Below, piece after piece: positions 22,060 through 44,774 of a stretch of DNA of 64,000 nucleotides; positions within the stretch are counted from its first letter, which is position 1; each line of letters starts with the position of its first letter. The stretch spans positions 1,952,001-2,016,000 of the forward strand of contig CBDCXV010000010.1 in NCBI GenBank assembly GCA_965223905.1. Direction: 5' to 3'. This DNA is from Candidatus Latescibacterota bacterium (GTDB taxonomy: Bacteria; Latescibacterota; UBA2968; UBA8231). Position numbers and translations under genes: made by a program. The notes beneath the pieces are model-generated. The model made no database searches, was not told the origin of the DNA, and saw only the letters and a program-made list of their open reading frames with translations.

Positions 22060-22123
22060 GATGCTTACAATTTCCATAACTGTATGATTCAATTCTACAG
22101 ATGAGATGAAAGGAGAACCAACC

Positions 22124-25074: not shown

Positions 25075-25247
25075 AACGTCCGACAACTCGCTCCACAGCC
25101 TGCCACGCTAATCGCACCGCATCCCGCCTGTATCTTGTTCCTCCCCCGACAGTTGCATATTTTCATTGATCATAGTGCGTTTGGCAGCATCAATCAACCA
25201 TCCTCGCGCAGCCGGCCTTGCCTGGACATTCACAATCCGACGGGAGC
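25075..25247 (+). repeat. Inverted duplicate of the promoter/leader region 43171-43339
   Basis: 86 bp identical (25075-25160), a diverged middle, then 28 bp identical GCCTGGACATTCACAATCCGACGGGAGC. Confidence 0.9.
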
Positions 25248-25249
25248 CT

Positions 25250-26864
25250 GTTCTCGTGGATTGATACCTCTGACTCGTAGCGGCTGCGCAGTTCTTCCAT
25301 GTACTCGTTGAACGCGTCCCGGTGTCTCCGGCGTCTGGAGCTGAGATCTGACCCTCATCTCAGCTTCGGCGAAGGTCTCGCGCTCCTCAACCGGCCCGGT
25401 GAGCTCGCCGATGTCGGCCTCGACCGCGGCTTCCACGAAACCGCCGAACTGGGGCGATTCGTGATGGTGCACGTGGAACCGACCCTCGTCATCACGCACC
25501 TCGAGCGATCGAATCGAATGTCTCTTCGCCAGGTCGCCAAAGGCGGCGCCGTCTTCGATCATCCCTTTCAAGCGTAGTGCCTCTATTCTGTTCTCACGAG
25601 GATCTCCTGCACCTCGGTCTGTTCGAGATGCAGGAATCTCTCAGCGTTGGCCTCGTAGTACTGGACCAGGTCGTCTTCGGTGATAGACACTCTCTCCATC
25701 AAACACGGAGGCCCTGAGGCCTTTGGCCAACTCCTGCTTCCCTTGCTCTTCGAGCCATTGGACCAGCTTCTCTTCGCGATCGATCCCCAGGCGCACAGCC
25801 GCCTCTTGAATCATCATGTCCGGGACGATGTACTGCTCGGCGAAGGAGACCACCTGCTCAGCGTCGCGGAGTGTCTCCAGAACATTGCCCTTGCGGCTTT
25901 TGGCCGCGGCGATGAGGTCGGCAGCTGTGATCTCTCCGCCGTCGTACTGGTAGAGGACGATCGCAGATGGGTCATGGCCGACGGCCGCCTCACCGGTGCG
26001 CAGTGCCTCGACTGCAGCGGCTATGCCGTCTCGGACCGGCTCGAGGCGGTATTTGTCCCTCAATTCCGCCACCAGCTCGGCCTTCGCGATTCCGCGCTTC
26101 TTTCGTTCGAGTTCTTCAGCGATTCTCATCCGCTGCCGCGGATTGAGCTGAGCGGTCGTCTCATCGAGGATCTTGAAGACGGCGTATCGGTCACCGATTC
26201 GAATCGGATCCGACACCGAGCCTACCGCGAGCCCGAACAGCTTGTCGGCGAGGACGGGAATCATCTCGTCCCTGGTGATGAACCGGCCTATGTCCCCGCC
26301 CCGGGCAGCGGTCTCTTCGTTCATCGACAGCTTCCTCGCGACGTCCGCGAAGCTCGCCCCTCCCTCGATCTCCCTCGCGGCCTTCTCTGCCGTCTCGAGG
26401 TCGGCGACCATGATGTCGCCCAGTCTGACAGCGCGGGCGAGCCCCTCCCGGTCTATGAACTGTTCTACTTCACTGTCTTCTACCGTTGCGTCGATCGTTC
26501 TTCGCTCGTACTCACTGACGAGCTTCGCCTTCCTGATCCGGATCATCCTGGTCAGGTAGGCGGAACTCCTCTCGTGGCCTTGGCTTCGGGCTTCCATCAG
26601 CAGCAGTTCCATGTCGATCATGGTCTGCAGATGGTCTCTCACCTGCTCCTTCCCGGCCTCTTCGCCCTTGGCATGCTCGGGCAATCTGTCGATGAAATCC
26701 CGCACGTCCTGGGCTGTGATCGCCCTGTCCCCGACCTGGGCGACGGTCGGATTCTCCTCGTGCGACGCGCAGCCCGTGTATGACAAAAGGAGGGTCAATG
26801 TCAAGCTGCCCGCTTTCGTCACTGGCCTCCCGTAGGAGAGACAAAAATTCAAGCTCGCGATCAT
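25250..26864 (-). pseudogene. PpiC/SurA-PrsA-type peptidyl-prolyl isomerase lipoprotein (two parvulin domains), C-terminal half frameshifted
   Basis: Lipobox-like YTGC; VAQVGDRAIT; GASFADVARKLS..TAARGGDIG; second domain GAAFGDLAKRHS..GELTGPV in shifted frames (~25700, ~25585, ~25330). Confidence 0.75.
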
Positions 26865-26881
26865 CCCGTATGATGCTCCTG

Positions 26882-29593
26882 CTAATCAAGACCGGCGTAT
26901 ACCGCGGCAAAGGCCACTCTGCCCGTCTCGGTCTCGTCATCTATCGATCTTCTGGTCAATCTCATACCCATTTTGGTCACCAGGCGGTAACCCAGGTAGC
27001 TGGTGTTGTTCGTGAACTGGAGCGCTCCGACGATTTCGGTGAAATCGTCTACCAGTCCCTCCCTGACCGCCGTCTCGGATTTGCGCAGCTGGTTGAAGAT
27101 CGAGTACTCGACACCGGCCTGGACGGAGGAGGAGGCGAACAGCGGCCATCGCGCCAGCAGGGAGAGCCGCACCGTGTCTTCCCTGCGCTTGGCATGGAAT
27201 CTGCCCGGCGGAGACTCGAGCCTGAGCTCGTTCTTTATTCTCGGCATGAGATCGACACGGGCCACCTTGCGTTCGAGGTCCACCTTGTTGATGAGACCGA
27301 AGAAGGTGTAGTTCTCCCGCAGATCGGGCTGTCGTTGGTTTTGGTGCCAGCGATCGTATTTGAGTTTACTCACGAAATTCACATCCTCGATCGCCGTGTA
27401 CTTGAAGCTCATGAACGTGGAGTTTATCCACGTGTCGCGAGCCGCCAGGGGATCGCCGGTTGGAAGGTTCCGCCGCTCGATCTCGCTCCACTGGCGAAGA
27501 CCGTTCGGTATGGTGTCCTTGGCGATTCTGATGTTCTCGAAGACCTTCAGCCTTCCGAGACCCGGGTAGTCCTGTTCCAGGACGAAGAGCATGTAGTGGG
27601 TCTTGTTTTCCCCCTCGCCGGCGATCAACTTCTCATCCGTTCGTCCGACGGTGAGCCTGATGCTGGGAAGCACGTTGACACCGCCGTAGATGTTGTATCC
27701 CTCGTGGTCCCTGGGGTAGGGGAAATCCGGTTCATCGTCGTTTTCGAACCGATCCACCCAGAGGTTGTTGTTCATGTCAATGCCGAACAGGTATTCCGGC
27801 CTGTCGGTTCCGTATCTCAAGAACGGCTCGTCGTAGTCCGGGAGGAGATTGCGAAGGTCCCTGGTGTCGTTCTGGTTGAAATCGGATATGAAGTCGAGGT
27901 TTTCGTCGTACCCGGGAAACACCTCGATGTCTATGTCTTGGAATATCCTCTGCCAGTCGGGGAACCTGTCCTGATCGTCGTTGTCGTCGACGAGCTCGTA
28001 GAAGAATCTGCCCTTGTCCGAGTAGTCTATGTTGGTTTCGCCCCTAGCCATTATGACGGAGGTGTTGTAGTTGTGGGCCATGCTGTAGGCTTCGCCGAAG
28101 AAGAAGAACGGATGGGCGATCTTCGACATATTCAACATCCAGCCATCGCCTTCGTCAGAGGTCCCCAGGTGCTTTGTGTGCGCCCTGTTGGGGTACTTCC
28201 TGTAGCTCACGCTGCGGTCCCATTCTCCGTAGAGGTCGAATCCCCAGAGGCGGGTCGCTTCCAGTGTGACCCCGAATATTTCGGTGGCCGTCGGCAGACC
28301 ATACGGGATCTTGAGGACGGTCAGGTTGGAGCCATCCTTGACGTTTTCATCGGCCCTGGCAGCCAGCAGGTAGACGTTGGCCAAATCCCTGTCGAACTGG
28401 CGGTTCGAGGTCATCTCGATTCTGTAGTCGTTGGCGACTACCAGCTCGACTGTCACCATTCTTATCTCTGACGGATCCGGGCCGGTGTACGTCCCCACCG
28501 AGAAGTCGTAGACCAGCTCGATCTGCTCGGAGCCGCTCGCCTCCCAGAACCCCAGCTGCTGAAAGCCGCCCCGGGGCGCGGGAATCAGCCCGACTTCGCT
28601 GGCCCGGACAACCTCTCTCTCGAAACTCACATCCCCCGCTTCATCGATCGTTTCGACGTCGGCCTCTATGATCATGTCCCACGCGAACAGATAGGTACCG
28701 CCTTCGTTGTCCCCTGGCGAGTCGTCCGAGAGTCGCACGAAGACCCGGGTGACGTTCTCCGCGTTCTGACTGGAGACGATCGAACCGCTTCGCGGGCTGT
28801 CCTCGAAGGCGTCGAGGAGCTGAGAGGAGTTGTGGGCGCTCACGTAGTTGGCGCCGAGTTTGAGATAATCTCCAACCTGGGCCGTCGCGCGCCCGCCGGT
28901 CAGGGTCGTCGAGCTCGTCCTCTGGTTAACAGTGGGGCTTCGCGGGCCGGCGCCTCCGGGCGAACCGACTCGGGAAAGGAGCGCCGTGACCTCGTACTTG
29001 TCGGACTGATAGTCGATCTGGATGCCGTCGAACGCCGGCTTCGAGAAGGACATCGGAGTCAGGGTCGATCGGATCTGATCGCCTATGGAGATGGCCAGAT
29101 TGTGCTGTCCCTTCTGATCGGAGGCTACGACCAGATTGCTGAAGAAACTGTTGAACCGTTTGGTCTTGAACAGGTTGCTTCCCCCCTGCTGGGGCTGGGT
29201 CTGGCTCCAGTCGTAGACCAGCCATCCTCTGGTGATGTACGAACCGTAGATGTCGTAGAAGTAGTCCCCCTCGAGATTGGTCGTTACATAGCGAGTGTAG
29301 TGATCTCTCGCGTAGTTGCTGTACTCCCACTGCTTCCACTGATATTCGCGAAACAGCTCCTGTGGGACGTACCACTTCCTGACCGCGGGGTCTAGAGCGC
29401 CGAACAGGACGCCGGGCCCCGTCGGTTCGAACGTGAGCTCGCCGCCGCGGCGAACCCCCGTTATCCGATCTCGATCGGGACCCTGGGCTTCCGAGCGAGT
29501 ACTGTACAGCAGGATCGCCGAGACGATGGTGCACCATATGGCCAGCGAACCGACCAGGCGCATCGCGGCTCTGATTGTATGACCGGTCACCAT
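26882..29593 (-). CDS. ~900-aa secreted, probable outer-membrane beta-barrel protein with Asp-rich Ca-binding-like loops
   Basis: Signal peptide and RBS AGGAGG; alternating amphipathic beta-strand pattern (FDGIQIDY, LGANYVS, VQAGVEYS) and C-terminal VAFAAVYAGLD; VDDNDDQDRFPD and DMNNNLWVD loops. Confidence 0.55.
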   Translation of the reverse strand: MVTGHTIRAAMRLVGSLAIWCTIVSAILLYSTRSEAQGPDRDRITGVRRGGELTFEPTGPGVLFGALDPAVRKWYVPQELFREYQWKQWEYSNYARDHYTRYVTTNLEGDYFYDIYGSYITRGWLVYDWSQTQPQQGGSNLFKTKRFNSFFSNLVVASDQKGQHNLAISIGDQIRSTLTPMSFSKPAFDGIQIDYQSDKYEVTALLSRVGSPGGAGPRSPTVNQRTSSTTLTGGRATAQVGDYLKLGANYVSAHNSSQLLDAFEDSPRSGSIVSSQNAENVTRVFVRLSDDSPGDNEGGTYLFAWDMIIEADVETIDEAGDVSFEREVVRASEVGLIPAPRGGFQQLGFWEASGSEQIELVYDFSVGTYTGPDPSEIRMVTVELVVANDYRIEMTSNRQFDRDLANVYLLAARADENVKDGSNLTVLKIPYGLPTATEIFGVTLEATRLWGFDLYGEWDRSVSYRKYPNRAHTKHLGTSDEGDGWMLNMSKIAHPFFFFGEAYSMAHNYNTSVIMARGETNIDYSDKGRFFYELVDDNDDQDRFPDWQRIFQDIDIEVFPGYDENLDFISDFNQNDTRDLRNLLPDYDEPFLRYGTDRPEYLFGIDMNNNLWVDRFENDDEPDFPYPRDHEGYNIYGGVNVLPSIRLTVGRTDEKLIAGEGENKTHYMLFVLEQDYPGLGRLKVFENIRIAKDTIPNGLRQWSEIERRNLPTGDPLAARDTWINSTFMSFKYTAIEDVNFVSKLKYDRWHQNQRQPDLRENYTFFGLINKVDLERKVARVDLMPRIKNELRLESPPGRFHAKRREDTVRLSLLARWPLFASSSVQAGVEYSIFNQLRKSETAVREGLVDDFTEIVGALQFTNNTSYLGYRLVTKMGMRLTRRSIDDETETGRVAFAAVYAGLD

Positions 29594-29629
29594 GTGACTC
29601 CCTCCTACCTTTCGAGTAATTGCGAACAA

Positions 29630-31360
29630 TCAATAGACCAAAGGCACGATCGCAGTCTTGCTCTCCTTACCTGTATCTGCAGCGACTTCCACGCGCACGA
29701 GGTAGACTCCCGGCGATAGCATTTGTCCGTTGTCGTCCGCGCCGTCCCAGACTCTCTGATATCTTCCACTGATGTCGAGGTCGGAGTAGATCACCCTTCT
29801 GAGGCTGCCGGCGAGGTCGTAGACTTGTACCGACACCGGAGTACCGCCTGTCAGGTAAGCGATGTCGTAAGTGACAATGGCTTGGTCGTTAACTCCATCG
29901 CCATTGGGCGTAAACGGAGCCGGGGCAACCTCGAGGAGGTGGATAAGATTCTCAGCGATCAGGACCGTGACGGAAAGGTCATCTCCGCTGGCGAGGGGAT
30001 CTGAAGCCGCATCTCCGGCGACGATCAATTGAGGCAGATCCTGCTCCCTCAAACTGTTGAAGACCTTACCGGCGAATACAGTGTTGTACTGCAGCGCTAT
30101 GCTCTCGAATACCACTGTGAGGGTCCTGTCTCCTCTGATCGCGGGAAAACTTACCTGAACACCGCCTTCGATGTCTGTTTTTTCCCACTCGACATCGTCT
30201 CCGTCGATCTGTACCGAGCGGATCACATCCACCGGTGCCTGAGTCTCAATTTCGAGTCGATCGAACCCGCGACTGTTGAAGCTCTTGACGGTGTAGGTCA
30301 ACTCGGTGTTGCGCCCGACCGTGGCTCTCTGCGGCCATATCTCTCCCAGCAGCGAATCGGCCAGCGCTGGCGAGACCTCCACGGCGATCGAATCGACCGT
30401 CGCTGCCGAAAGGATGTCGCTGTTCTGGAACAGAACGCGAAACTGCCAGTACTGGCGGGGTGCAGGTGATACGATCTGTGTACGCACTCCGGCCGGATAG
30501 GGAGGAGACCATCCGCTCCACTCCAGGCTATCGCTCGGGTCCGGCGTGCTGCCACTTCGGGTGGATACGGTAGCAGATACCTTGGTAGGCTCTCCTATCG
30601 TCTCCTTTGCCCACGTTATGCCGCCGAAGACGGCGGGCCGATCCTCATCGAACACATTCGAAGTGTACGCAGCAGCAGATGCGAAACCTTCGCCGAAGAT
30701 CTGAAACTCGTCGATCTCCCATGCCCCCCGTACTTCCTGCTGCACCTGTATGTAACGCACGAACTGCAGCGGCACGTCTATGTCGACGACCGGGTCGCGA
30801 TTGCGTTCGACTGTCCTGAAGAGTCTGAAATCGGGATTTCCGGCCTCGGTCGTCTGCTCCTCGCTGCCGTCGTTCAGCCACACTTTGTAACCCCTCAGGA
30901 AGAACTCCTCGAACCCCTGGCGGGGGAAAAATCTGATCCTGTTGACTCCAAAACTCTCGCCCAGATCAAACCTGAATCGGACCCCTGTGGCCCTCGGGAG
31001 CTTGACTTCGAAGGCCGTGCTCTCGTTGTCCGCCATCTTGTTCAGCAAGGCAGGCAACTCAATCGGCTTGACTCCGAGAACGATGTGCGCATTCTGCGAC
31101 GTTATTTCCCCCTCCTGTTTGATCACCTTCAGGGAAATATTGTCTTCAGGATCGTTCTGTGAAGGTTGAATGGAACCGGGATTGGTTTCGAAATCGATGA
31201 TCGTTGTCTCGTTCTCGGAATACTCCTGATCCCAGGCGCGGGAACCCGGGCCACCTCCGAAGACGATCGTCTCTCCATTGCCTGTCGCCGCAAGTCCGAG
31301 GAGAACGATAGACAGAACGGGCAGGGCCACAGTTCTATGAGGTGATGTCCCGATTGTCAT
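29630..31360 (-). CDS. Secreted discoidin-like + FlgD-Ig C-terminal domain protein (FTPNGDGVND)
   Basis: Signal peptide; FDLG..FGVNRIRFFPR; WSGWSPPY..SPAPRQY; APFTPNGDGVND...VYDLAG..WDG.D..G...PGVYL. Confidence 0.75.
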   Translation of the reverse strand: MTIGTSPHRTVALPVLSIVLLGLAATGNGETIVFGGGPGSRAWDQEYSENETTIIDFETNPGSIQPSQNDPEDNISLKVIKQEGEITSQNAHIVLGVKPIELPALLNKMADNESTAFEVKLPRATGVRFRFDLGESFGVNRIRFFPRQGFEEFFLRGYKVWLNDGSEEQTTEAGNPDFRLFRTVERNRDPVVDIDVPLQFVRYIQVQQEVRGAWEIDEFQIFGEGFASAAAYTSNVFDEDRPAVFGGITWAKETIGEPTKVSATVSTRSGSTPDPSDSLEWSGWSPPYPAGVRTQIVSPAPRQYWQFRVLFQNSDILSAATVDSIAVEVSPALADSLLGEIWPQRATVGRNTELTYTVKSFNSRGFDRLEIETQAPVDVIRSVQIDGDDVEWEKTDIEGGVQVSFPAIRGDRTLTVVFESIALQYNTVFAGKVFNSLREQDLPQLIVAGDAASDPLASGDDLSVTVLIAENLIHLLEVAPAPFTPNGDGVNDQAIVTYDIAYLTGGTPVSVQVYDLAGSLRRVIYSDLDISGRYQRVWDGADDNGQMLSPGVYLVRVEVAADTGKESKTAIVPLVY

Positions 31361-31387
31361 TGCTAAGCACTGGCTCCTGTCAGTAGG

Positions 31388-32365
31388 CGACGTGCACCAA
31401 TCGATGGACCGAGGTGTTCTTCTTGGATGTCGAATGCACATCCAGGTCGATGCGCATCAGATAGATCCCCGGTGGCACGATCGCTCCCGACTGATCAACT
31501 CCCGTCCACGCCACCGTATGACGACCCGCCGTTATGGTCTCCTCAGTTATCCGCGCCACCAGCCGGCCGCTCAGATCGTACACTTCCACCTGAACCGGCG
31601 TCGAAGCAAGCACCCGCATCAGCGAAAAACTGACCTCCAGCTCGTCGTTGATGCCGTCGCCATTGGGCGTGAACCCGCTATCGACCTGCAGATCCCCCAG
31701 CAGCTCGCCGCGCTCCAGCGCCAACACCACCGTCGTCTCGCTGTCCACAACCCCGTTGGCATCGCCGTCATCCGCCCGCTGCCACGAGTTCTCGAACTCC
31801 GAGTGCCCCAGGGAGCCGATGAAAAACGTGTTGTACACGAATATGGTCGCCTCGAACTGAAGCTCCACCAGCGCTGATCCACTCGTCGTCTTGATCGCAG
31901 CCGGCAGACGCACCCACAGCGAATCCGTCTCCATCACCACCTCGAACCCCTCGCTCTCCGCCGTATACGTACGGCTTCCTGCCCCGTCACGTCTACACTC
32001 ACCTGTTGCAGCGTCATGTCGACGCCGTCGGGCGCCTCGATGAGGATCTCGTCGAACCCCCTGCTGCCCGACTCGAAGGTCGAGCGGATGAAATACGACA
32101 ACCCCCCCGAAGAACGTACTGTCCGATTTCCAGGCCGCGCGCGCCTCCTCTTCGGTGCCCGGGTATTCATCCCCGTTCTTCTTGTAGTAGCGGGTTGTGC
32201 GCTCGACCGTATCGCCGGTTCGGGTTTGTAAGATGAGATTCGTACCCGGCGGCACGTCGGCCTCCCACTCGATGGAAGCCAGGTTCTGAGGGGTCTCCGC
32301 CAGCTCTATGAACGGGGACTCCCCTCCGAACTCAGACGAGATCTGCGACTCCGCCAGGAACCCTT
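31388..32365. repeat. Near-identical direct repeat of 38424-39667 (3' part of the paralog pair, apart from the deletion)
   Basis: Only a few SNPs/indels by eye; ~37960-38305 is likewise near-identical to ~40665-41020. Confidence 0.9.
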
Positions 32366-32991
32366 CCCCGAAAAACTGGAGCTCCGACAGCCCGTGGCTC
32401 CCTTGCCCTGGCTCGAACTCGGAGTAGTGGGTGAGCCTGTAGGTGAAGGCAAAATGCTTGACCTTCGTGAGCGGGAATTTGAAGTCGTGGTAATTTTGCC
32501 CCCACACGATGTCGCTGAGCGACCCTACCGTCTTCCAGGCCAGTTCGCCGCCGGCATTGGTGGAGCCGTCCGAGAGCTGAATTCGGTAGGCTCTGAACGG
32601 GCCTGGGGGCTGGAGGGCCGTGAGTACCCTGATATTGTCCAAAAAGTAGGAGCCTCCAAGATCTATGAACAACGAGCGCTCTGCATCCGGCGGAGCCGAA
32701 ATCGGCAACCTGTCGGGATCGTACGATCCCTGGGCAGACCAGAACAACACCTCGCCGAAGAGGTCCCCATCTACCACGGCCCCTGCCTGGTCGTTATTCT
32801 CCCAGCCGGTCACGCTGCCGCCCCGCTCCAGTACTTCCGTGCCGATATTGTCGCCGATGGCCCAGACCTCGATCTCGGCCAGCCTGGGCTGATCAGCGAC
32901 AATTATTTCTCCCGCCTGACGACAAGTAGAATTCCCGGATTTCCGCGTCGGCAGTATCCTATTCTAACCCCCTGTAAACACTGGAGGTTAA

Positions 32992-34493
32992 ATGGTTACC
33001 GACGCCCAAGTGAGGAGACTGATGAAGCTGATTCGAACCGAGAAGACGTTGGCCGTGGCCGCCGCCAAGGCCGGCATGGACGAGAAGACCGCGCGTAAGT
33101 ACCGCGATGCGGGGCAGCTGCCGAGCCAGTTGGCCGCCGAGCCTACGTGGCGCACCCGGGTCGATCCCTTCGAGCAGGTATGGCCGGAGTTGAAGGACCT
33201 GCTCGACCACAACCCGGGCCTGGAGGCCAAGCAGTTGTTCGAGTACCTGCAGCGCCAGCACCCCGGCGCGTTTGCCGACGGGCAGTTGCGCACCCTTCAG
33301 CGCCGGGTGAAGGTCTGGCGCGCCCTGGAGGGTCCGGCCAAAGAGGCGTATTTCCCCCAGCTTCACAAGCCCGGGCAACTGGGGCAGTCGGATTTCACGG
33401 ACCTGAGCTCCCTGGGCGTCACCCTCCAGGGCCGTCCCTTCAACCATCTGCTCTACCACTTCGTGCTCACCTACTCCAACTGGGAGACGGTCAGGATCTG
33501 TTTCTCCGAGAGCTTCGAGGCGCTCAGCGCCGGTCTGCAAGACGCCTTGTGGGAGTTGGGGGGCGTGCCCCGGGCTCACCAGACCGACTGCCTGAGTGCG
33601 GCCGTGCATAAGCTCGGCCACCCCAACCCCTTTCACGCGTCGATTCGACGCCCTGCTGTCTCACTACGGCCTGGAAGGGCGCAAGACCCACCCGGGCAGC
33701 CCGCACGAAAACGGGGACGTGGAGCAGGGACATTATCGCTTCGTCCGGGCCGTCGAGCAGGGTCTGATGCTGCGGGGCAGCCGCGACTTCGTCTCCAGGG
33801 ACGAGTATGCCGGCTTCCTGCGCACGATACTGACTCAGCGCAACGCCGGACGCCAGGAGAAGCTGGCCGAGGAGCTGGAGGTGGTGCGCCGTCTGCCGGC
33901 TCGACGGCTCGACGACTTCAAGCGGCTGGAGGTGCGGGTGAGCCCGTTCAGTACGATCCGGGTGCAGGACAACACCTACTCGGTCCACAGCCGCCTGATC
34001 GGCGAACGCGTGCAGGTGCGTCTGTACGCGGACCATGTCGACGTCTACTACGCCCAGCGCCATCTCGAACGGATTCCGCGGCTGCGCGGCAAGGGCGGGC
34101 ACTGCATCCAGTATCGCCACGTCATCGACTCGCTGGTGCGCAAACCCGGTGCCTTCGCCCACTACCGGTACCGCGACGACCTGTTTCCGACCACGCGTTT
34201 CCGGCTCGCCTACGATAGCCTGCGCGCAACGCACAGCGATACCGCGGCCAGCCGCCAATATCTGCTGATTCTTCAACTGGCGGCCCGGGAGAGCCAGGAG
34301 CGCGTCGAGGCGCTGCTGCAGCGGTTGCTGGACGCCCGGCAGCCGCTGAGCGCGGAGCGGGTCAGGCAGTTGCTGCAAGCCGGCGCCCGGAGCGACGCTC
34401 CGGCCGCCTCGGTCCAGGTGCGACCGGGTCGACCTGCGCCTCTACGACCGCCTGCTGTCGTCGCCCCCGTTGGCACAGGCGGTGGCGCCATGA
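32992..34493 (+). CDS. istA: IS21 transposase IstA (frameshifts at ~33630 and ~34425)
   Basis: AGMDEKTARKY, WRTRVDPF, GQSDFT, HENGDVE, NTYSVHSRLIG, LVRKPGAF; ATGA overlap with istB. Confidence 0.85.
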
Positions 34494-35251
34494 CCCGACG
34501 AAACACGCGCAAGCTCCTGCAGGACGGGCTCAAGGAGCTGCGCTTGCCGGCCATGCGCAGCGGCTTTCCGCAGGTCGCCGAGCATGCCCGCGCCGATTCG
34601 GCCAGCTACGAGCAGTTCCTGCTGGCGCTGGTCGACCAGGAACGCGACGTGCGCCGCCAGCGCCGCATCGAGCGCGCCCTGCGGGCCTCCCACCTGCCCC
34701 TGGACAAGACCCTGGAGACCTTCGAGCGCACGCGACTGCCCCGCAAGATCGACCCCCTCGTCAACGCCCTCATCGAGGGCTCCTTTCTCGACCGCTGCGA
34801 AAACGTGCTGGCCTTCGGCCCACCCGGCAGCGGCAAGACCCACCTGCTGTGTGCCATCGGTCTGGAGTTGATCTACGCCGGGCGCCGCGTGCTGTTCCGG
34901 CGCTGCGACGTGCTCGTGCAGGAGCTGCTGGCCGCCAAGCGCGATCTCGTCCTGCCGCGGGTGCTCAAGCAGTGGGGCCGCTTCGACGCCCTCCTGATCG
35001 ACGACCTCGGCTACGTCCAGCACAGCCGTCAGGAGATGGAGGTGCTGTTCAACCTGCTGGCGCACCGCTACGAGCGCGGCAGTGTCCTGATCACCAGCAA
35101 CCTGCCGTTTTCCCGATGGGAGGAGATCTTCAAAGACCCCATGACCACCGCGGCGGCCATCGACCGCCTGGTCCACCACAGCGTTATCCTCGAACTCAAC
35201 ATCTCCAGCTACCGGCTGGAGGCGTCGAAAAAGAAGCGTCGTGCCGCCTGA
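34490..35251 (+). CDS. istB: IS21 helper ATPase IstB
   Basis: GPPGSGKTHL Walker A, LLIDDLGY Walker B, RYERGS.LITSN, AAAIDRLVHH. Confidence 0.95.
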   Translation: MTRRNTRKLLQDGLKELRLPAMRSGFPQVAEHARADSASYEQFLLALVDQERDVRRQRRIERALRASHLPLDKTLETFERTRLPRKIDPLVNALIEGSFLDRCENVLAFGPPGSGKTHLLCAIGLELIYAGRRVLFRRCDVLVQELLAAKRDLVLPRVLKQWGRFDALLIDDLGYVQHSRQEMEVLFNLLAHRYERGSVLITSNLPFSRWEEIFKDPMTTAAAIDRLVHHSVILELNISSYRLEASKKKRRAA

Positions 35252-35639
35252 CGGGGCGAAGAGTTCGTGGCTAGCCCGGCCCCAGGCCAACGGTCGGGAC
35301 GACGCCGTCCCGGAGCGCAACACGGATGTGGATAATTTGCCAGTGCGGGAGGTGTCCTGCAGCCCATGTGCTTACCCGCTCAGACCGTGCCCTCTACAGG
35401 CTACGAAAGAGGTACAACCCCAACCCAGAACGGGAATTCTAATTGTCGTCAGAGGGAATTTCTAGTTGACGCCGATCACTTTAGTAGACTACCGGCCCCT
35501 GCCTCTCCGTGCCCGCCAGAGCGTCCCAATCCTCTTTCCCATCCAGCAACCTCACCTTCCCCGACACCTCTCGCCGGAAGTACTCTATCTCTCCCTGCCG
35601 GTCGGCTGACAGACTATCGTATTCGGACTGGGAAACCTG

Positions 35640-37679
35640 GAAGCGACCAGTCAATGCTGGTCGATAGGGAAGGAAAGGAGGTGAGACCTTTCCGGAAATA
35701 TCGTTTGTCATCCAGCGGGTGCAAAACCCGCCCGGCCAAAGCTGAGCCCGGCAGGCCGGAAGCGAGCCTTTGCGCCGGTCCCGGTAACGGGGCGGGTGAT
35801 GCGTAAGGCAGCGAGCGAGTGGGCCGTGGGGTTGCAGCTCCGAAAGAAAGTATCGTCCCGGCAGAGCCCAAGGGGTTCGGTTTCTGGAAGGCAGCAGTGT
35901 CGTCACCGGGTAGAAGTGGGCGAGGCGACGGCGCACCGGCGGAGTGGATGACCATGGCACGTTCGAAGAGGATGATCCAAGTAAACTGGGAGGCCCTTGT
36001 TTTCCACGGTGTGATCCGGTCCGGGGAGCCGTATGAAAGTCTCCAGCGTGTCCCACGTCGGAGGACGCACGCGGGACGCGGCGACGAACACCCGTCCCTA
36101 CCGTGGTAGGTCGTTGGCGAGGGGAACCGGAGCCGCGACCGATGAAGCAAGGGAGTCGGAGGGCTGCAAAGTAGCAAAGACCTCGGGGAACGGTCGGCAC
36201 CGGACCCGGGCAAGCGAAGGTAACCCGCGTTGGTATGAACTTCAGGAGGGTATCATGACCGATGCATCGACATCGGGGGACATGTCCCTGGGACTCTTGA
36301 AGGTAGCGGAACGAGCGAGGCGCGAGCCGCGCGGCCAGTTTCACTCGCTCGCCCACCTGATCGATGTGGATGCTCTGCGCAGGGCGTATGAACGCCAGCG
36401 GCCCAACGTGGCCCCTGGCACCGACGGCGTGACCAAGGCGCAGTACGGGCAGGAACTGGAGAGCAATCTTCGGGACCTGCACCAGCGACTGCGCAGCATG
36501 CGGTGGCGTCATCAGCCCCTGCGGAGGGTCCACATCCCCAAGGAAGGACAGCGTGGTGAGACGCGACCGATCGGCATCGCGTGTTTCGAGGACAAGTTGG
36601 TCCAAGGGGCACTGAGCGAGGTGCTGTCGGCCGTCTACGAGCAGGACTTTCGGGACTGCTCTCACGGCTACCGGCCGGGGCGCAGTGCCCATGATGCACT
36701 GCGGGCACTGGATCGGGCGGGTATGAGAGGCGAGGCGAACTGGGTGCTGGAGGCGGATATTGAGTCGTTCTTCGATAGTGTGAGTTGGACTCAACTTCGC
36801 GAGATCCTCCAGCAGCGGATTCCCGATGGGTCGATCACCCGGCTCGTCGGGAAGTGCATGCACGCGGGGGTGCTCGACGGCGAGGAGTTTTTGACGCCGG
36901 ATAGTGGCACGCCCCAGGGGTCGGCTCTGTCTCCGCTGCTCGGGAACCTCTTTCTGCACTATGTGCTGGATCAGTGGTTTGAGGACGAGATCAAGCCGCG
37001 CTTACGCGGAAAGGCGCACCTGATCAGGTACGCCGACGATTTTGTGATCGGCTTCGAACGACAGGACGACGCGCAACGTGTGCAGGAGGTGTTGCCCAAG
37101 CGGATGGGGAAGTATGGGCTGCGCCTGCGGCCGGACAAAACACGGCTCATTCCTTTCGCACGCCCCTCACAGGGCCAGACGAAAGGGAAGGGGCCGGGCT
37201 CCTTCGACCTGTTGGGGGTTTACGTGCTACTGGTATCGAGCCCGTACAGGTCGATGGGTGCTGGCGTACAAGACCAAGCGTGCACGACGGAAGCGGGCCA
37301 TCCGGGCCGTGTATACATGGTGTCGGCAACATCGACACCTGTCGATTCCTGAACAGCACGCCGCCCTCACCAAGCGACTGGAAGGCCACTACAACTATTT
37401 CGGGGTGAACGGCAATGTCGGCAGCCTTGTCCGGCTCGTCGAGCACACGAAGCGCGCATGGTTTAAGTGGCTGAATCGCCGTAGCCAGCGAAGTCGCCTG
37501 AACTGGGAGCGATTCGAGGACCTGCTTCGGGATTACCCGCTCCCGCCACCCCGCCGCGTCGTCCAGCTGTCGAGTGGTTAGAACCGCGAGCCATATCAGC
37601 AGAGGAGCCGGATGGTGGAAATCTCCAAGTCCGGATCTGGGGAGGGCCGGAGCTGGGCAACTGGCTCCGGCTACTCAAC
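35640..37679 (+). mobile_element. Group II intron (endonuclease-minus), inserted antisense into the host gene
   Basis: Domain V GAGCCGGATGGTGGAAATCTCCAAGTCCGGATC, domain VI hairpin ending CTACTCAAC; excision restores GGAAACCTG-CCTCGCC as in the paralog; no TSD. Confidence 0.92.
36255..37581 (+). CDS. ltrA: Group II intron reverse transcriptase/maturase (frameshift in the G5 run at ~37215)
   Basis: RBS AGGAGG; APGTDG, RRVHIPK, RPIGI, GYRPGRSAHDAL, DIESFFD, GTPQGSALSPLL, RYADDF, FDLLGF, GHYNYFG; no HNH domain. Confidence 0.92.
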
Positions 37680-38415
37680 CCTCGCCCTGCCGAAGTCGCT
37701 GTCCGTGATCCCCACCCCGACGTATCGGATAATGTCGCCGGTAAAATCGCCCAGTGCGTTGGGCCACTTCGTCGGTAGCTGTTTGGTCAGATCGATCTCG
37801 AAAACCCGCTCGTTCTTGATCGGTTTGTCCGTGGTGAAGCGTGTCCGGAAAACAAGCTGATCGAGGGTTCTCTGTCCCTGTGAAGTGGTCACCTTGAACT
37901 GCAGAAAAGGGTCTCCCAGATCTTCACCGACAAACTTGAGGACGATCCTGGGGGCAGATACCGTCCGCCCCAGATCGATCTGCACCCACCAGTCTTCCAA
38001 CAGATCGGACGTGTCCGGTCCCCAGTAGGTGTCCATCCTGCCATCCATGAGGTCATGTCGCTCGGGCGATTGGATCCGGCAGCTAATATTCCGCCGCCGA
38101 ATTCGGCGGCATTGGCATTGAGGGCGGCGTTGATGCCGGGAACGACGACTTCCTCGCCATCTATCTCCAGGCTCGTGTGCTTACGGATCAAGGCGGGCTT
38201 CACGCCCTCATCGCTGATCTGGACCGTGTTGGCAGCGGAGTGCCAGCGTTCCCAATGCTCCCTGGAATCGACGACCACCTTGCCTGACTCCAGCGAATAC
38301 CCCTCCTTCCCCGGCACACGCCCGCCGCAAACAATGTCAACACGGAACAGACCAGGGCAGTTCTGATTGAGTTGAGAGAAAATGCCGCCGATCTCATGGC
38401 TTCTCCTGACTAGCC

Positions 38416-41205
38416 TCAATAAGCGACGTGCACCAATCGATGGACCGAGGTGTTCTTCTTGGATGTCGAATGCACATCCAGGTCGATGCGCATCAGATAG
38501 ATCCCCGGTGGCACGATCGCTCCCGACTGATCAACTCCCGTCCACGCCACCGTATGACGACCCGCCGTTATGGTCTCCTCAGTTATCCGCGCCACCAGCC
38601 GGCCGCTCAGATCGTACACTTCCACCTGAACCGGCGTCGAAGCAAGCACCCGCATCAGCGAAAAACTGACCTCCAGCTCGTCGTTGATGCCGTCGCCATT
38701 GGGCGTGAACCCGCTATCGACCTGCAGATCCCCCAGCAGCTCGCCGCGCTCCAGCGCCAACACCACCGTCGTCTCGCTGTCCACAACCCCGTTGGCATCG
38801 CCGTCATCCGCCCGCTGCCACGAGTTCTCGAACTCCGAGTGCCCCAGGGAGCCGATGAAAAACGTGTTGTACACGAATATGGTCGCCTCGAACTGAAGCT
38901 CCACCAGCGCTGATCCACTCGTCGTCTTGATCGCAGCCGGCAGACGCACCCACAGCGAATCCGTCTCCATCACCACCTCGAACCCCTCGCTCTCCGCCGT
39001 ATACGTTACGGCTTCCTGCCCCGTCACGTCTACACTCACCTGTTGCAGCGTCATGTCGACGCCGTCGGGCGCCTTGATGAGGATCTCGTCGAACCCCCTG
39101 CTGCCCGACTCGAAGGTCGAGCGGATGAAATACGACAGCTGCTGCTTCGTGCCGATCTCCTCCAGACGCGAGGGCAGCACCTCGCCCACGATCGTGCCGG
39201 CCACCGGCCTCACGAAGTTCAGCGCCACAGAACGCAGCGTGGCCGCTGCCATGGGATCTTCCGTCAGCAAGGTCGTCCTGATGGCGACGAACTTCCTGGG
39301 ACTGGGCGAGGTGATCTTTTCGCCTGAATCGAAGTAGGGCTGACTCCAGCCACTCCAGTCACTGCCCGGGATCGTCTCGGGTATGGCCGGGCCCACCGCA
39401 GCTTCCCCCCCGAACCACGTACTGTCCGATTTCCAGGCCGCGCGCGCCTCCTCTTCGGTGCCCGGGTATTCATCCCCGTTCTTCTTGTAGTAGCGGGTTA
39501 TGCGCTCGACCGTATCGCCGGTTCGGGTTTGTAAGATGAGATTCGTACCCGGCGGCACGTCGGCCTCCCACTCGATGGAAGCCAGGTTCTGAGGGGTCTC
39601 CGCCAGCTCTATGAACGGGGACTCCCCTCCGAACTCAGACGAGATCTGCGACTCCGCCAGGAACCCCTCGCCAAAAAACTGGACCTCCGACAGCCCGAAT
39701 GAGTCGGCGACAAACTCGGCCGACCCATCATTGGGCCACAATCGGTAGGTGAACGCGAAAAACTTTGCCTTGGTGAGCGGAAACTTGAAGTCGTTGTACC
39801 TCTCGCTGGTCGGACCCGAGGAAATGTTGAGACTTTTGACCGACCCCACAGTCTTCCAGGCCAGGCTGCCGCCGGCATTGGTGGAGCCGTCGGAGAGCTG
39901 GATTCTGTATTCGGGAAATGGACTGGTCCACGTCGACTTGCCGAATATCTGCAGCACCCTGATATTGTCCAGAAAGAAAGCGCCGCCAAAATCTATGATC
40001 AGCTGGCGCTCGATATCCACCGGCTCTGACGGCGGAAGAAAACTGGGGTTGAAGCCCCCTACGGCGGGCCAGTACGGCACGTCACCGAAGTAGTCTCCGT
40101 CGACCACCGCGCCTTCAGCGCCGTTGTTGTCGACGCTCGTCACCCTGCCTCCCCGCGCAATTACTCCCGTGCCGATGTTGTCGCCAATAGCCCAGACCTC
40201 GATCTCGGCCAGTCTGGGAACCTCGCGGCGGTAGTAGACCACCGGCCCCTGCCTCGCCGTGCCCGCCAGAGCGTCCCAATCCTCCTTCCCCCCTCGCAGT
40301 AGCCTTTCCCTCCCGGAAGCGTCACGCCGGAAGTACTCTATGTCTCCCTGCCGGTCGGACGGCAGGCTCTCGTATTCGGACTGGGAAACCTGCCTCGCCT
40401 TGCCGTAATCGCTGTCCGTGATCCCGACTCCGACGTACCGGATGATGTCGCCGGTGAAGTCGCCGGTTGTATTGGGCCACTTCGTCGCCGGCTGTTTGGT
40501 CAGATCGATCTCGATTACCCGCTCGTTCTTGATCGGTTTGTCCGTGGTGAAGCGGGTACGGAACAGACGCGGACCGATGGTTTTTTCTCCCTGAGAGGTC
40601 GTCACCTTGAACTGCAGAAAAGGGTCTCCCAGCTCCTCCCCGACAAACTTGAGGATGATCTTGGTGGCAGATACCGTCCGCCCCAGATCGATCTGCACCC
40701 ACCAGTCTTCCAACAGATCGGACGTGTCCGGTCCCCAGTAGGTGTCCATCCTGCCATCCATGAGGTCGATGTCGCTCGGGCGATTGGATCCGGCAGCTAA
40801 TATCCCGCCGCCGAATTCGGCGGCATTGGCATTGAGGGCGGCGTTGATGCCGGGAACGACGACTTCCTCGCCATCTATCTCCAGGCTCGTGTGCTTACGG
40901 ATGAAGGAGGGCTTCACGCCCTCATCGCTGATCTGGACCGTGTTGGCAGCGGAGTGCCAGCGTTCCCAATGCTCCCTGGAATCGACGACCACCTTGCCTG
41001 ACTCCAGCGAATACCCCTCCTGTCCCCAGCACTGACCTACCGCCGACAACGTCAACGCGGAACAGATTAGTGCCGCGCGGCACAAGTCCGTTATCAGTTG
41101 AGCGTCGACCCATCCCGGCTCGCGGCGCTCACCTTGTGGCAACGTACTTACGCCGCGAGGCACTCGGATTCTTATCGAGTGGAGCAAAAATGCCGATGAG
41201 CGCAC
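38416..41205 (-). CDS. Large secreted tandem discoidin-like + FlgD-Ig C-terminal domain protein (FTPNGDGIND)
   Basis: GTG start after AAGGAG; WWVQIDLGRTV, IIDFGGAFFLDNIR, WSGWSQPY..SPSPRKF, FTPNGDGIND...VYDLSGRLV...PPGIYL. Confidence 0.8.
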   Translation of the reverse strand: MRSSAFLLHSIRIRVPRGVSTLPQGERREPGWVDAQLITDLCRAALICSALTLSAVGQCWGQEGYSLESGKVVVDSREHWERWHSAANTVQISDEGVKPSFIRKHTSLEIDGEEVVVPGINAALNANAAEFGGGILAAGSNRPSDIDLMDGRMDTYWGPDTSDLLEDWWVQIDLGRTVSATKIILKFVGEELGDPFLQFKVTTSQGEKTIGPRLFRTRFTTDKPIKNERVIEIDLTKQPATKWPNTTGDFTGDIIRYVGVGITDSDYGKARQVSQSEYESLPSDRQGDIEYFRRDASGRERLLRGGKEDWDALAGTARQGPVVYYRREVPRLAEIEVWAIGDNIGTGVIARGGRVTSVDNNGAEGAVVDGDYFGDVPYWPAVGGFNPSFLPPSEPVDIERQLIIDFGGAFFLDNIRVLQIFGKSTWTSPFPEYRIQLSDGSTNAGGSLAWKTVGSVKSLNISSGPTSERYNDFKFPLTKAKFFAFTYRLWPNDGSAEFVADSFGLSEVQFFGEGFLAESQISSEFGGESPFIELAETPQNLASIEWEADVPPGTNLILQTRTGDTVERITRYYKKNGDEYPGTEEEARAAWKSDSTWFGGEAAVGPAIPETIPGSDWSGWSQPYFDSGEKITSPSPRKFVAIRTTLLTEDPMAAATLRSVALNFVRPVAGTIVGEVLPSRLEEIGTKQQLSYFIRSTFESGSRGFDEILIKAPDGVDMTLQQVSVDVTGQEAVTYTAESEGFEVVMETDSLWVRLPAAIKTTSGSALVELQFEATIFVYNTFFIGSLGHSEFENSWQRADDGDANGVVDSETTVVLALERGELLGDLQVDSGFTPNGDGINDELEVSFSLMRVLASTPVQVEVYDLSGRLVARITEETITAGRHTVAWTGVDQSGAIVPPGIYLMRIDLDVHSTSKKNTSVHRLVHVAY

Positions 41206-41238
41206 TTCTTTCTCCTTGCTTCGTGACAGCACCGCTAA

Positions 41239-43164
41239 TCAGTAGGCTACTGAAACGACGCCGCTGCTGATCTCCCTCCCTGACTGCACGTCCACCACCA
41301 GCCGGTACAGATACAGCCCCGGCGGCACCAGCCCGTTCGAGTCGTCCCGGCCATCCCACACGTGGCTGTACTCACCCACCGGATTCTCCCCCTCATACAC
41401 CCGCCTCACCAGCCGGCCCGACAGATCGTAGATCTCGAGCGACACCGGCACCGCTGACGTCACCCGCAGGAGCTTGTACGAGATGTCAACCACATCATTC
41501 ACCCCATCGCCGTTCGGCGTGAACGGATTCGGCGAGATCCGAGGCGAAAACACCAGCGATTCGCTCAGAGCCGTTCTCACCGACAAACGATCGCCTTCGA
41601 TCTCATCGGCAGCATTGCCCGGCACGACCCGCTGCCGCACCTCGTGCGGCCTTTCCGTGTCGAACACTCTGCCTGCAAACTGGTTGCCCACTTCTCTCAG
41701 TACCGGAGCGGTGAACACCACCTCCACCAGCGCACCGCTGTCAGTCGGCTTCAGCCGGCGCGGGAGCAGAACCTCAAACCCAAGACCGTCTTCGTGGATA
41801 GTCCACGAGAAATCGTCGTGATCGACCGCGTCTATGCGCAGCGAATCGACCGACACCACCCCTGACGGCGTCGAGATCTCCACCCCGTCAAAGCTGATGT
41901 CGGTGGAGTGGATCGTCGGACTGATGTAATAGGTGAAATGCGTCGGCTCGCCCACCGCAGTCTCTATCGGGTAAATCTCCCCTACCAGTTCGCGAACCAG
42001 CGGCGGTACAGACGCTTTGACTTCTATGAAGTCGATCTTGCCCCCGTCTTCGATAGTCGATGAAAAATCCGTTCTGATCTGGAAGTATTTCCGCGGCCCT
42101 GGGGATACGAAGGCAACCCCGGGATGCTCGAACGCATACGGGGACGACCAGAAACTCCAGTTCTCCGTATCCGAACTGACCCAGTCCGCCTCGTCTCGCG
42201 GCTTGAAAAGCTTAGTGAGTTTTTCGTACTGGCGCTTGTACTCCGTCAGGCTCAGGTCGCCGCCGCCCTGCAGAAACTTGATGCTGTCCTGCTGCTCGGG
42301 GCGGGCTTCCCAGAAAATGACCGGCTGCGGGTCATTGCCCGCCCGGGTGCGGATAGCGACCCGGGCATGGGGATCCTGCCGCCCCGACCAGCGAATCTCG
42401 CCCAGACTGGCGGTGTCGTCTAGCGCGATCACATCCGATTCGTACGACGCCGGGCTCACAAATCCTCCGCCGAAAATCTCGATATCGGCGATCCCAATCT
42501 CCTTTTGCGTAGTGCGAAAAATCCCCAAGCGCATAGACCTGACTGTTGCCGGGTGTAGCAGAGTGACGTTGACGTCGGGATCCGTGTTTTCCCTTACCTC
42601 GACTAGTCGCGTGAAATTCGGGATCCGGTCCGGAACTCTCGTCCGTTCTCCGCTGACTTCAATCTTGAAATGGGTCACGAAATGCTCTGGTCTGTCTGCC
42701 AGAGGTCGGAACGCCACTTCCCTGATCGAGAAGCGCCCACCCAGATCGAGGTAAACCCAGTTGAGCCTAGTGAACTTGTTGAAGACCTCTGGTGCGATGG
42801 CTGGCCAAGTGTAAGCCGTTCGCGGATCCTGATCGATCAGCGAGTGCACCCGGTCATCCGAGACAATAGCTGTTCCGGTTGCTGCCAGGAAGCCATCTCT
42901 GGAAAAGAGCGTCGCAGCGATGTTTTCGTCCTCGTCGAAGAAGTTGGGCTGCAGAGAACCCGCCTGTAACGAGTCTGGCTCGAGGGCCTCCTCGAACTGC
43001 GAGGCCGACCACGCGATGTCCCGGAAGTCGATACTGAGCCCCTCCAGACTGTCCTTCTCCGCTGCGGTAAAAGGCGCGCCGATGCGGTAGACGATCACGC
43101 CCGAAGCGTCGCGCGCATTGAGAGCGAGGGCAATTAAGATGAGCAGGAACATTCCTGTCGTCAT
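41239..43164 (-). CDS. Secreted discoidin-like + FlgD-Ig C-terminal domain protein (PNPFTPNGDGVND); first gene of the operon
   Basis: Signal peptide; YLDLGGRF.IREV.FRP; WSFWSSPY..SPGPRKYFQ; C-terminal WDGRD..G..VPPGLYLY...VSVAY. Confidence 0.8.
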   Translation of the reverse strand: MTTGMFLLILIALALNARDASGVIVYRIGAPFTAAEKDSLEGLSIDFRDIAWSASQFEEALEPDSLQAGSLQPNFFDEDENIAATLFSRDGFLAATGTAIVSDDRVHSLIDQDPRTAYTWPAIAPEVFNKFTRLNWVYLDLGGRFSIREVAFRPLADRPEHFVTHFKIEVSGERTRVPDRIPNFTRLVEVRENTDPDVNVTLLHPATVRSMRLGIFRTTQKEIGIADIEIFGGGFVSPASYESDVIALDDTASLGEIRWSGRQDPHARVAIRTRAGNDPQPVIFWEARPEQQDSIKFLQGGGDLSLTEYKRQYEKLTKLFKPRDEADWVSSDTENWSFWSSPYAFEHPGVAFVSPGPRKYFQIRTDFSSTIEDGGKIDFIEVKASVPPLVRELVGEIYPIETAVGEPTHFTYYISPTIHSTDISFDGVEISTPSGVVSVDSLRIDAVDHDDFSWTIHEDGLGFEVLLPRRLKPTDSGALVEVVFTAPVLREVGNQFAGRVFDTERPHEVRQRVVPGNAADEIEGDRLSVRTALSESLVFSPRISPNPFTPNGDGVNDVVDISYKLLRVTSAVPVSLEIYDLSGRLVRRVYEGENPVGEYSHVWDGRDDSNGLVPPGLYLYRLVVDVQSGREISSGVVSVAY

Positions 43165-43239
43165 CTGGCAGCTCCCGTCGGATTGTGAATGTCCAGGCTC
43201 GGCTGGCTGCGCGAGAATAGTCGATGTTGCCAAACGCAC

Positions 43240-43279
43240 TATGATCAATGATCATATGCAACTGTCGGGGGAGGAACAA
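43240..43279 (-). promoter_or_regulatory. Putative sigma70 promoter with a palindromic operator over the -10 box
   Basis: Minus strand TTGTTC-17 bp-TATGAT; perfect 8-1-8 palindrome TATGATCA-N-TGATCATA at 43240-43256. Confidence 0.6.
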
Positions 43280-44543: not shown

Positions 44544-44774
44544 AGACACTGGTAGTAGTCACGATACTCCTGGGCTGCGGCAATGGGAAGGTACGCCATA
44601 TCCGCGCTGTAGTCTCTGGCCGCCCACAAACGATGGATATCATCAACCTCTCCGACCTTGTCTATACGCAAGAGTCTTCTTATAAGGTCCCATTGTTTGT
44701 TTTGCTCGAATCAAAATACTGTAGCCTGGAGAGTGTTGAGGAAGAAGCATTCATCTGGTAGCGAGGGACAAGGG

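Follow-up and report, generated by a model that had tools for sequence, protein, structure and literature searches.

A large predicted outer-membrane barrel encoded beside type-B-like type IX cargo genes in Latescibacterota-like bacteria

To our knowledge, the handling of type B cargo by type IX secretion systems (T9SS) has been elucidated only for Bacteroidota, with small PorP/SprF barrels as cognate shuttles or anchors. [quoted passage not shown] Binding of type B proteins to PorP-like barrels is reported there (PMC9143113), and in F. johnsoniae a porP/sprF-like gene sits directly downstream of genes for type B substrates and is required for their secretion (PMC12618676). A PorE-like gene follows Fjoh_3951 (PMC12618676), and C-terminal cysteines are mentioned as a feature of PorP/SprF shuttles (PMC12635249). 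Here, we analyzed a 64,000-nucleotide stretch (hereafter the window) of a Candidatus Latescibacterota bacterium (contig CBDCXV010000010.1, positions 1,952,001 to 2,016,000). According to the open reading frame (ORF) list and translations, six closely spaced minus-strand genes, A to F, occupy 25.2-43.3 kb of the window (Table 1). A, B and D encode putative surface proteins with a type-B-like CTD, C is a disrupted duplicate, E encodes a large predicted beta-barrel, and F a parvulin-type peptidyl-prolyl isomerase (PPIase). The locus is probably one copy of a multi-copy cassette that is specific to Latescibacterota-like bacteria and extends a T9SS. E may well be a lineage-specific partner, as shuttle or anchor, for type-B-like T9SS cargo, doing a PorP/SprF-like job from outside that family, a reading for which our confidence is evenly balanced.

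The locus resembles the type B/PorP-SprF systems (SprB-SprF and Fjoh_3952-Fjoh_3951 of F. johnsoniae; PG1035-PorP-PorE of P. gingivalis) in the CHU_C tail of its cargo, in the barrel gene that directly follows the cargo gene (71 of 80 related loci and 19 of 26 runs of E genes in the genome that carries the window, hereafter the home genome), and in the many paralogous pairs per genome with non-enzymatic, adhesin-like cargo. A looser likeness concerns the PorE-like gene, as a tetratricopeptide repeat (TPR) protein often comes after E; the one in the home-genome locus L122 was confirmed as TPR by Pfam. In contrast to the small PorP/SprF barrel of ~300-400 residues, E has 903 amino acids and ~28-30 predicted strands, matches neither PF11751 nor TIGR03519, and ends in AFAAVYAGLD without a cysteine. 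Further differences from the Bacteroidota system are tails that score under the TIGR04131 cut-off, a lineage outside Bacteroidota, and undetected PorK/L/M/N.

With SusC/SusD loci the cassette shares a barrel beside surface glycan-binding-like proteins and dozens of copies per genome. Unlike SusC, however, E carries no Plug or TonB-dependent receptor domain, and none of the 27 Plug matches in the home genome lies at an E gene; its partners are T9SS-tailed proteins rather than SusD lipoproteins. Moreover, Pfam recognized no glycoside-hydrolase family among proteins representing the ten most frequent groups of accessory genes (such as TPR/TMTC-like, DUF6785, FG-GAP, LRR, GDSL and isochorismatase proteins), and the fit to a SusCD-like locus is therefore poor. 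SlpA of Deinococcus, MtrB and LptD are alike in predicted fold class and approximate size and gave the best Foldseek matches, but with TM-scores of at most 0.33 and 5-8% identity, and E has no SLH domain, no LptD N-terminal domain and no MtrB-like context. No literature connecting type IX secretion or T9SS to Latescibacteria or Latescibacterota was found in a search that included broader terms and covered neither supplements nor subscription journals.

Protein E and its putative cargo

Protein E matched no Pfam family even at an E-value of ≤10 and no NCBIfam family at ≤0.01. At an E-value of ≤0.001, 863 relatives were found in a set of 5.8 billion proteins, and an exhaustive search returned 690 cluster representatives, 180 of which reached ≤1e-30. 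Among the 120 relatives listed, nearly all are ~850-920 amino acids long, and each source name shown was "hypothetical protein". In the ESM Atlas, E matched only unnamed clusters, and no fused long form of E was present among proteins of 1582-4515 amino acids, which is weak evidence. A profile search against PDB sequences gave one chance-level match (E-value 0.071), and DUF6029 was the nearest named ESM Atlas cluster (0.88), but the DUF6029 model matches another frame of the genome, of 524 amino acids, and not E.

The AlphaFold2 model of E, with 51 aligned relatives, is a long-stranded beta-barrel (pLDDT 77.6, pTM 0.73). Long antiparallel strands run across residues 110-505 and 630-901, and ~29 strands were counted on the DSSP string, i.e. 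28 or 30. The N-terminus consists of a signal peptide (assigned by eye, as were those of the cargo) and a low-confidence part of ~70 residues (30-100). Residues ~505-630 form a 124-residue Asp/Asn-rich segment without secondary structure in the model; this segment is the best-conserved part of the family and holds most of its near-invariant residues, mainly Asp, Asn and Pro. Strand alternation, counted back from the C-terminus on the DSSP string, would place it on the outer side. Foldseek and VIA-align matched the model to outer-membrane barrels only (SlpA, MtrB, LptD, ushers, porins and FhaC), with TM-scores of at most 0.37 and VIA-align Z-scores of at most 13.6, and no barrel stood out. Because the matches are all barrels but weak, the fold class is supported and assignment to a family is impossible. 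The models thereby agree with the original prediction, made from the DNA letters alone, that the 900-residue protein is probably a barrel and does not resemble a PorP/SprF protein or a TonB receptor: E is predicted to be a large outer-membrane beta-barrel and, judged by profile searches, is outside PorP/SprF, the TonB-dependent receptors and every curated family tested. A complex prediction of E (37-903) with the CTD of D (470-576) scored 0.00 in both runs, which, without controls, says nothing either way.

The cargo proteins carry type-B-like tails. At a gathering cut-off of 27 bits for both families, CHU_C and FlgD_ig scored 40.8 and 36.3 bits in A, 33.3 and 37.8 bits in B, 34.8 and 38.5 bits in the C-terminal fragment of C (31380-32813), and 29.8 and 28.4 bits in D. 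All four CHU_C matches are C-terminal and above the gathering score, which is the Pfam test for type B. The motifs WSxWSxPY...SPxPR and FTPNGDG[VI]ND and the V[AV]Y endings are readable in the translations. These results bear out the claim of four proteins with a common architecture and a type-B-like CTD. Of the discoidin-type models, F5_F8_type_C exceeded its cut-off in B alone (32.6 bits; cut-off 28.2), where F5_F8_type_C_2 scored 29.0 bits; F5_F8_type_C remained sub-threshold in A (20.0 bits) and gave no match in D. The AlphaFold2 model of D (pLDDT 85.1, 29 orthologs aligned) is a chain of beta-sandwich modules throughout; Foldseek matched it to Ig/FN3 chains, to CBM32 and galactose-oxidase N-terminal domains and to PorU, and no enzyme fold was recognized among these matches. 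Full-length D orthologs of 40-78% identity sit directly upstream of E orthologs, so the D-E pair is conserved. We propose that the products of A, B and D lack catalytic activity and serve as lectin-like surface proteins, in which the type-B-like CTD is combined with a WSxWS beta-sandwich and with discoidin-like and Ig-like domains.

Recurrence of the cassette and type IX components

The home genome (G000; 7.9 Mb, 93.6% complete, 5.1% contaminated) contains 35 E-like ORFs in 26 runs as detected by phmmer with E, 21 above 480 bits and 14 at 115-203 bits. A hidden Markov model (HMM) derived from the A, B and D tails found 157 ORFs with a C-terminal CTD in this genome, and their sequences fall into two tail classes. 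Tails of the Y class (56 of 157) open with TPNGDGxND, have a V[AV]Y-type end and finish in Y, F or W. Those of the K/R class (90 of 157) open with YPNPFN and finish in K or R ("YPNPFN...LLK"), which is type-A-like; the other 11 end differently. Within 10 kb of an E gene, a zone that makes up 6.6% of the genome, lie 48 of the 56 Y-class tails, 3 of the 90 K/R-class tails and none of the 11 others (Fisher p of 2e-26, for a comparison in which paralogs and related genomes are non-independent). Gene A is among the eight "far" Y-class cases, at 11.6 kb from E, because the insertions in C pushed it away. Conversely, a Y-class gene is present within 10 kb in 25 of the 26 E runs and directly upstream in 19 of them.

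The two classes also differed in Pfam content. The scan covered 50 of 53 Y-class ORFs with a length of 400 amino acids or more; the other three are the fragment of the pseudogene and two ORFs from contigs C2 and C3. CHU_C matched 42 of them, FlgD_ig 42, F5_F8_type_C 18, F5_F8_type_C_2 16 and Por_Secre_tail none. The remaining matches were one Bac_rhamnosid_N, a non-catalytic rhamnosidase N-terminal domain, and one DUF2271, and no catalytic family was matched in these 50 proteins, all of which align as a single family with a common architecture. For the K/R class, the last 130 residues of 20 tails drawn at random from 81 ORFs of at least 300 amino acids were scanned, with FlgD_ig in 18, Por_Secre_tail in 8 and CHU_C in 4.

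The same arrangement recurs outside the home genome. Eighty related loci were collected from a species-representative genome collection, 72 of them with at least 1.5 kb of upstream sequence. The nearest ones come from metagenome-assembled genomes mostly titled Candidatus Latescibacterota, with some titled Gemmatimonadota, Gemmatimonadetes or Gemmatimonadaceae and one Handelsmanbacteria. As the nearest relatives are titled Latescibacterota, the lineage is non-Bacteroidota, as had been proposed. The 71 loci counted above have a CTD ORF directly upstream of the first E gene, and 79 of 80 have a CTD ORF somewhere; tandem E genes occur in 30. A PPIase-like ORF is present in 60 loci, on the same strand in 38. 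Together with the E runs of the home genome, these counts uphold the proposed synteny of E with FTPNGDG proteins. That with the PPIase is looser: it appears in the 60 loci, in the home genome only 13 of 26 runs have a PPIase-like ORF within 10 kb, and the window copy is frameshifted. None of the observations named beforehand as counter-evidence, namely the lack of a barrel fold, membership in a known family or missing synteny with FTPNGDG proteins, was made.

Several other genes accompany E. In 52 of the 80 loci, the same-strand run that surrounds E includes a secreted Asp-rich protein of ~306 amino acids, which heads the cassette in relatives. Its family gives ~40 tblastn matches across the home genome, and the window member is displaced to the other strand. 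This neighbor was considered as a diverged PorP/SprF protein and rejected, being secreted, Asp-rich and without BLAST similarity to the PorP-like ORF of genome G035 described below. Same-strand E runs also contain TPR/TMTC-like proteins (25 ORFs in 23 of 80 loci), DUF6785/DUF6784 proteins (14 of 80), a lipoprotein of ~257 amino acids (12 of 80), FG-GAP/ASPIC proteins (10 of 80), GDSL+TPR proteins (10 of 80) and LRR proteins (10 ORFs in 8 of 80).

The distribution of E and D was then compared with that of T9SS genes in a phylum sample of 121 genomes including the home genome; related genomes are non-independent, and the results are read as patterns, not statistics. E was found in 72 genomes, SprA in 113 and D-like proteins (E-value ≤1e-25) in 59, all of which also have E. 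The holders of E and D are a subset of the SprA holders. In the families labeled f2, f3 and f4 (44 genomes), SprA was found in 43, and E and D in none. PorP_SprF-like ORFs (PF11751) were detected in 29 of 121 genomes with marginal scores of 20-28 bits and frames of 265-485 amino acids: 25/29 in f2, 0/40 in the family of the home genome, and four in other genomes that also have E. One of the latter, G035:C180 (L164:1165-2067), is a 300-residue ORF of 26 bits located ~1.5 kb downstream of an E gene. A member of the 257-residue lipoprotein family stands between the two.

Key T9SS components were recognized in the home genome. SprA was represented by a 2069-residue frame with SprA_N at 98 bits, PorU scored 617 bits, above its cut-off, and an adjoining PorV-like ORF scored 91 bits, under the cut-off of 250. 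A second, longer PorU-like frame (G000:C1:111635-116458; 1842 amino acids) scored 259 bits, also under the cut-off, and has a CTD-like tail of its own. Neither PF11751 nor TIGR03519 matched a PorP/SprF protein in the home genome; since PF11751 does match in 29 of the 121 genomes, the search is able to detect PorP/SprF in this phylum. Models of GldL, GldM and GldN had no match in the home genome, and GldK matched there only in part, in its sulfatase-modifying-like domain. No control genome reached the cut-off for any of these families or for PorP/SprF, and GldK alone gave any match in the controls, so the absence of PorK/L/M/N is not established. Either the PorKLMN motor and ring are too diverged for the models, or the T9SS is organized differently. 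The search for T9SS genes suggested at the outset thus returned SprA, PorU and a PorV-like protein, and left PorK/L/M/N undetected by searches that the controls did not validate. The original idea of an analogous but distinct module stands as regards the unrelated barrel and the non-Bacteroidota lineage. As SprA, PorU and PorV are present, however, the simplest view of the module is as an extension of a T9SS and not as a secretion system in its own right.

A possible role for E

Gene content, predicted folds, specific co-location and co-distribution are observed, and from these we infer the following transport and binding steps. A, B and D would be exported across the inner membrane by Sec and would cross the outer membrane via the SprA translocon. 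E, encoded directly downstream, rather than PorV/PorU, would then take over the type-B-like tail and retain the cargo on the surface, so that two to four lectin-like subunits may be displayed non-covalently on E. The conserved acidic outer segment of E could, speculatively, be the docking site. F may act as a periplasmic chaperone of the barrel or the cargo, and the TPR protein of other cassettes would also act in the periplasm. We favor E as a partner of type-B-like cargo because the Y-class tails alone cluster at E genes and Pfam backs the split between the classes; because the order of cargo gene, then barrel gene follows the known rule for type B genes; and because SprA, PorU and PorV are present, PorP/SprF was not found in the genome, E and D are nested within the SprA holders, and E is a predicted outer-membrane barrel.

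A number of findings weigh against this reading. TIGR04131, the NCBIfam model of type B tails, stays under its 35-bit cut-off in A (22.3), B (18.9) and D (16.6). CHU_C occurs in 4 of the 20 K/R-class tails, so the split into types A and B is not clean by HMM. Since paralogs and related genomes are non-independent, the counts and the Fisher p overstate the support. All 13 genomes of family f10 have E, and only one of the 13 has D at an E-value of ≤1e-25. A barrel of ~28-30 strands is far bigger than an anchor needs. A working T9SS is not certain, as PorK/L/M/N went undetected in a search unvalidated by controls. PorP-like ORFs occur together with E in four genomes, and in one cassette of G035, and E therefore need not replace PorP. 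The case for E as a shuttle or anchor draws on co-location, fold prediction and phyletic pattern; on that evidence, we judge it about as likely as not.

The size of the predicted barrel would suit another function, in which E is a wide diffusion channel or gated channel for ligands caught by the CTD lectins, a TonB-independent counterpart of SusC/SusD that may add to anchoring. The discoidin/CBM32-like modules of the enzyme-free cargo and the SusC/SusD-like expansion (35 E genes against 27 Plug-domain matches in the home genome, and up to 86 E candidates in one related genome in a first-look screen) are in line with such surface capture and import. Against it stand the missing Plug or TonB-receptor signature of E and the lack of a recognized glycoside hydrolase among the ten accessory-group representatives, and we regard import as unlikely. 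A more elaborate form of this idea is somewhat less probable still. It assumes a stripped-down T9SS of SprA, PorU and PorV with no recognizable PorKLMN motor or PorP, in which E barrels would be a new class of outer-membrane machine: each would take its own lectin-like, type-B-tailed subunits from SprA, hold them via a calcium-loaded acidic segment and import their catch through the wide lumen. If true, this would be a TonB-independent, T9SS-assembled equivalent of SusCD with tens of specificities per genome.

The undetected PorK/L/M/N could also be read as a sign that E is itself a dedicated exporter, an outer-membrane pore for the neighboring CTD proteins of the usher or two-partner kind, with F as chaperone and SprA uninvolved. 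E and Y-class cargo always occur together, a chaperone-like PPIase is present in 60 of 80 loci, and usher barrels are among the many other barrels matched by Foldseek. However, the usher TM-scores (at most 0.35) are no better than those of other barrels, and E has no POTRA or usher domain by HMM. SprA, PorU and PorV are present, and the Y-class tails share their fold family with the ~90 type-A-like tails and with PorU's own tail, which points to a common SprA route. Of the readings considered, we find this the hardest to credit. It is about as improbable as the simple import channel that E and the CTD proteins are linked by location only, with E as a structural or porin-like protein co-regulated with surface proteins, or with both in a coat or S-layer-like array without contact between CTD and barrel. 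The top Foldseek matches of E are indeed to the Deinococcus S-layer barrel SlpA (7zgx, 8ae1), and the cassette has other conserved members (the 306-residue secreted protein, the 257-residue lipoprotein and the TPR protein). The SlpA TM-scores, though, are at most 0.24, and the link involves specifically a single CTD class and the immediately upstream position, for which co-regulation alone is insufficient.

The window copy and its wider meaning

The features of the locus are listed in Table 1. Intergenic gaps are short (D-E ~36 nt with the E start taken at MVTGH, which was chosen from the start position of database relatives; E-F 17 nt), and the predicted tightly packed minus-strand gene set was recovered with its ORFs, coordinates and gaps. 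A sigma-70 promoter scan found 6 sites, against 4.4 ± 2.1 in shuffled sequences, and both promoter and terminator counts were at chance level, which lends no support to the single promoter that had been called. RNA-library contigs (runs X15 and X16) overlap E, D and F as well as the C/B tail in part, with 92-100% likeness. These contigs come partly from relatives and may reflect DNA carry-over; they are at most a weak hint of expression, and uncovered stretches are uninformative.

Table 1. Positions of genes and insertions in the window
Feature	Positions	Strand	Description
Gene A	41239..43248	-	669-aa ORF; likely start MTTGMF at ~43164; secreted all-beta protein, type-B-like CTD ending VSVAY
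Gene B	38416..41232	-	938-aa ORF; discoidin-like domain, WSGWS module, type-B-like CTD
Gene C	31380..38419	-	Disrupted duplicate of B
Gene D	29630..31441	-	603-aa ORF; likely start MTIGTS at 31360; cargo gene directly upstream of E
Gene E	26882..29593	-	903 aa from MVTGH; ORF extends to 29629
Gene F	25641..26864	-	SurA/PrsA-like parvulin PPIase, probable lipoprotein; 407 aa, truncated copy
Remnants of F	25230..25640	-	3' part of F, surviving as out-of-frame remnants (tblastn with 657-aa paralog ORF and three-frame reading)
IS21-like element	32889..35481	+	Inside gene C; istA-like frame split, then istB gene
Group II intron	35640..37679	+	Inside gene C, antisense to C; RVT_1 ORF 36033-37352
Asp-rich protein gene	22106..23038	+	~306-aa secreted Asp-rich family member; 67% identity to L030 ORF (tblastn); no Pfam family

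Gene C is a pseudogene, as originally called, whose B-like segments are split by the IS21-like element and the group II intron. By blastn, its identity to B is 92% at 37680-38351, 86% at 35482-35639, 79% at 32102-32888 and 99.4% at 31380-32100, and C lacks an equivalent of 267 nt of B (39138-39404). The IS21-like element was identified by Pfam (IstB_IS21, 214 bits, and Mu-transpos_C_2), and its limits were drawn from the B-C blastn comparison and from joints of 32888 to 35482/35491 in contigs of runs X16 and X3. The intron was recognized by Rfam (RF02005 at 35722-35954, 94.9 bits; RF00029 at 37603-37679, 40.2 bits). Contigs from public runs, 92-94% like the window, bridge both insertions, with 35639 joined to 37680; therefore, close relatives or paralogs carry an uninterrupted C.

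Gene F is also damaged. It contains a PPIC-type rotamase domain (Rotamase, 45 bits; cut-off 21.7), while SurA_N_3 reached 22.7 bits, under its cut-off of 27.2, and the NCBIfam PrsA/SurA equivalogs match far under theirs. F is a probable lipoprotein because a ...YTGC motif follows a hydrophobic stretch, as judged by eye. The reading frame stops at 407 amino acids, and the remaining ~190 codons, roughly the 3' third, lie in other frames when compared with the 657-residue paralog ORF. The initial call of a parvulin lipoprotein is therefore supported by domain and motif, with the reservation that this copy is truncated. Run X1 yielded a contig that agrees with the window at every base over 25433-25847, and contigs of run X3 differ from it by 1-nt indels at 25337, 25585 and 25701. 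Because of the X1 identity, the frameshifts seem real for this strain, though X1 may be the source sample.

A sister cassette lies ~50 kb away (G000:C10:1920303-1930185). It is intact, with an E of 87% identity, and has the canonical order of 306-residue protein, CTD proteins of 883 and 603 amino acids, E and an unframeshifted 657-residue PPIase ORF. Of the two, the window cassette looks like the decaying duplicate. An IS66-family transposase is encoded at 20180-21685 (-); taken with the intron and the IS21-like element, it suggests that mobile elements are abundant in this region. Beside the operon, in divergent orientation, 44658-47504 (+) encodes a 948-residue protein with FlgD_ig and a weak Por_Secre_tail match, i.e. 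a type-A-like tail. Two DUF6785+DUF6784 proteins (15343-17328 (-), 423 bits; 52980-54911 (-), 406 bits) represent a family that is also found near E in relatives. A DUF4838 protein (49144-51597 (-), 152.8 bits) is followed by a weak BNR-repeat-like protein (51610-52848 (-)), and this pair may be glycan-related.

These genomes show the genetic logic of cargo gene followed by barrel gene once more, in a different lineage and with an unrelated barrel of giant size. The E family, so far unnamed, is among the most expanded of the outer membrane in these genomes and would define a large new family of outer-membrane proteins. E is a testable candidate for T9SS cargo sorting outside Bacteroidota, and its cassettes could account for a large part of the cell-surface composition in an uncultured and widespread group.

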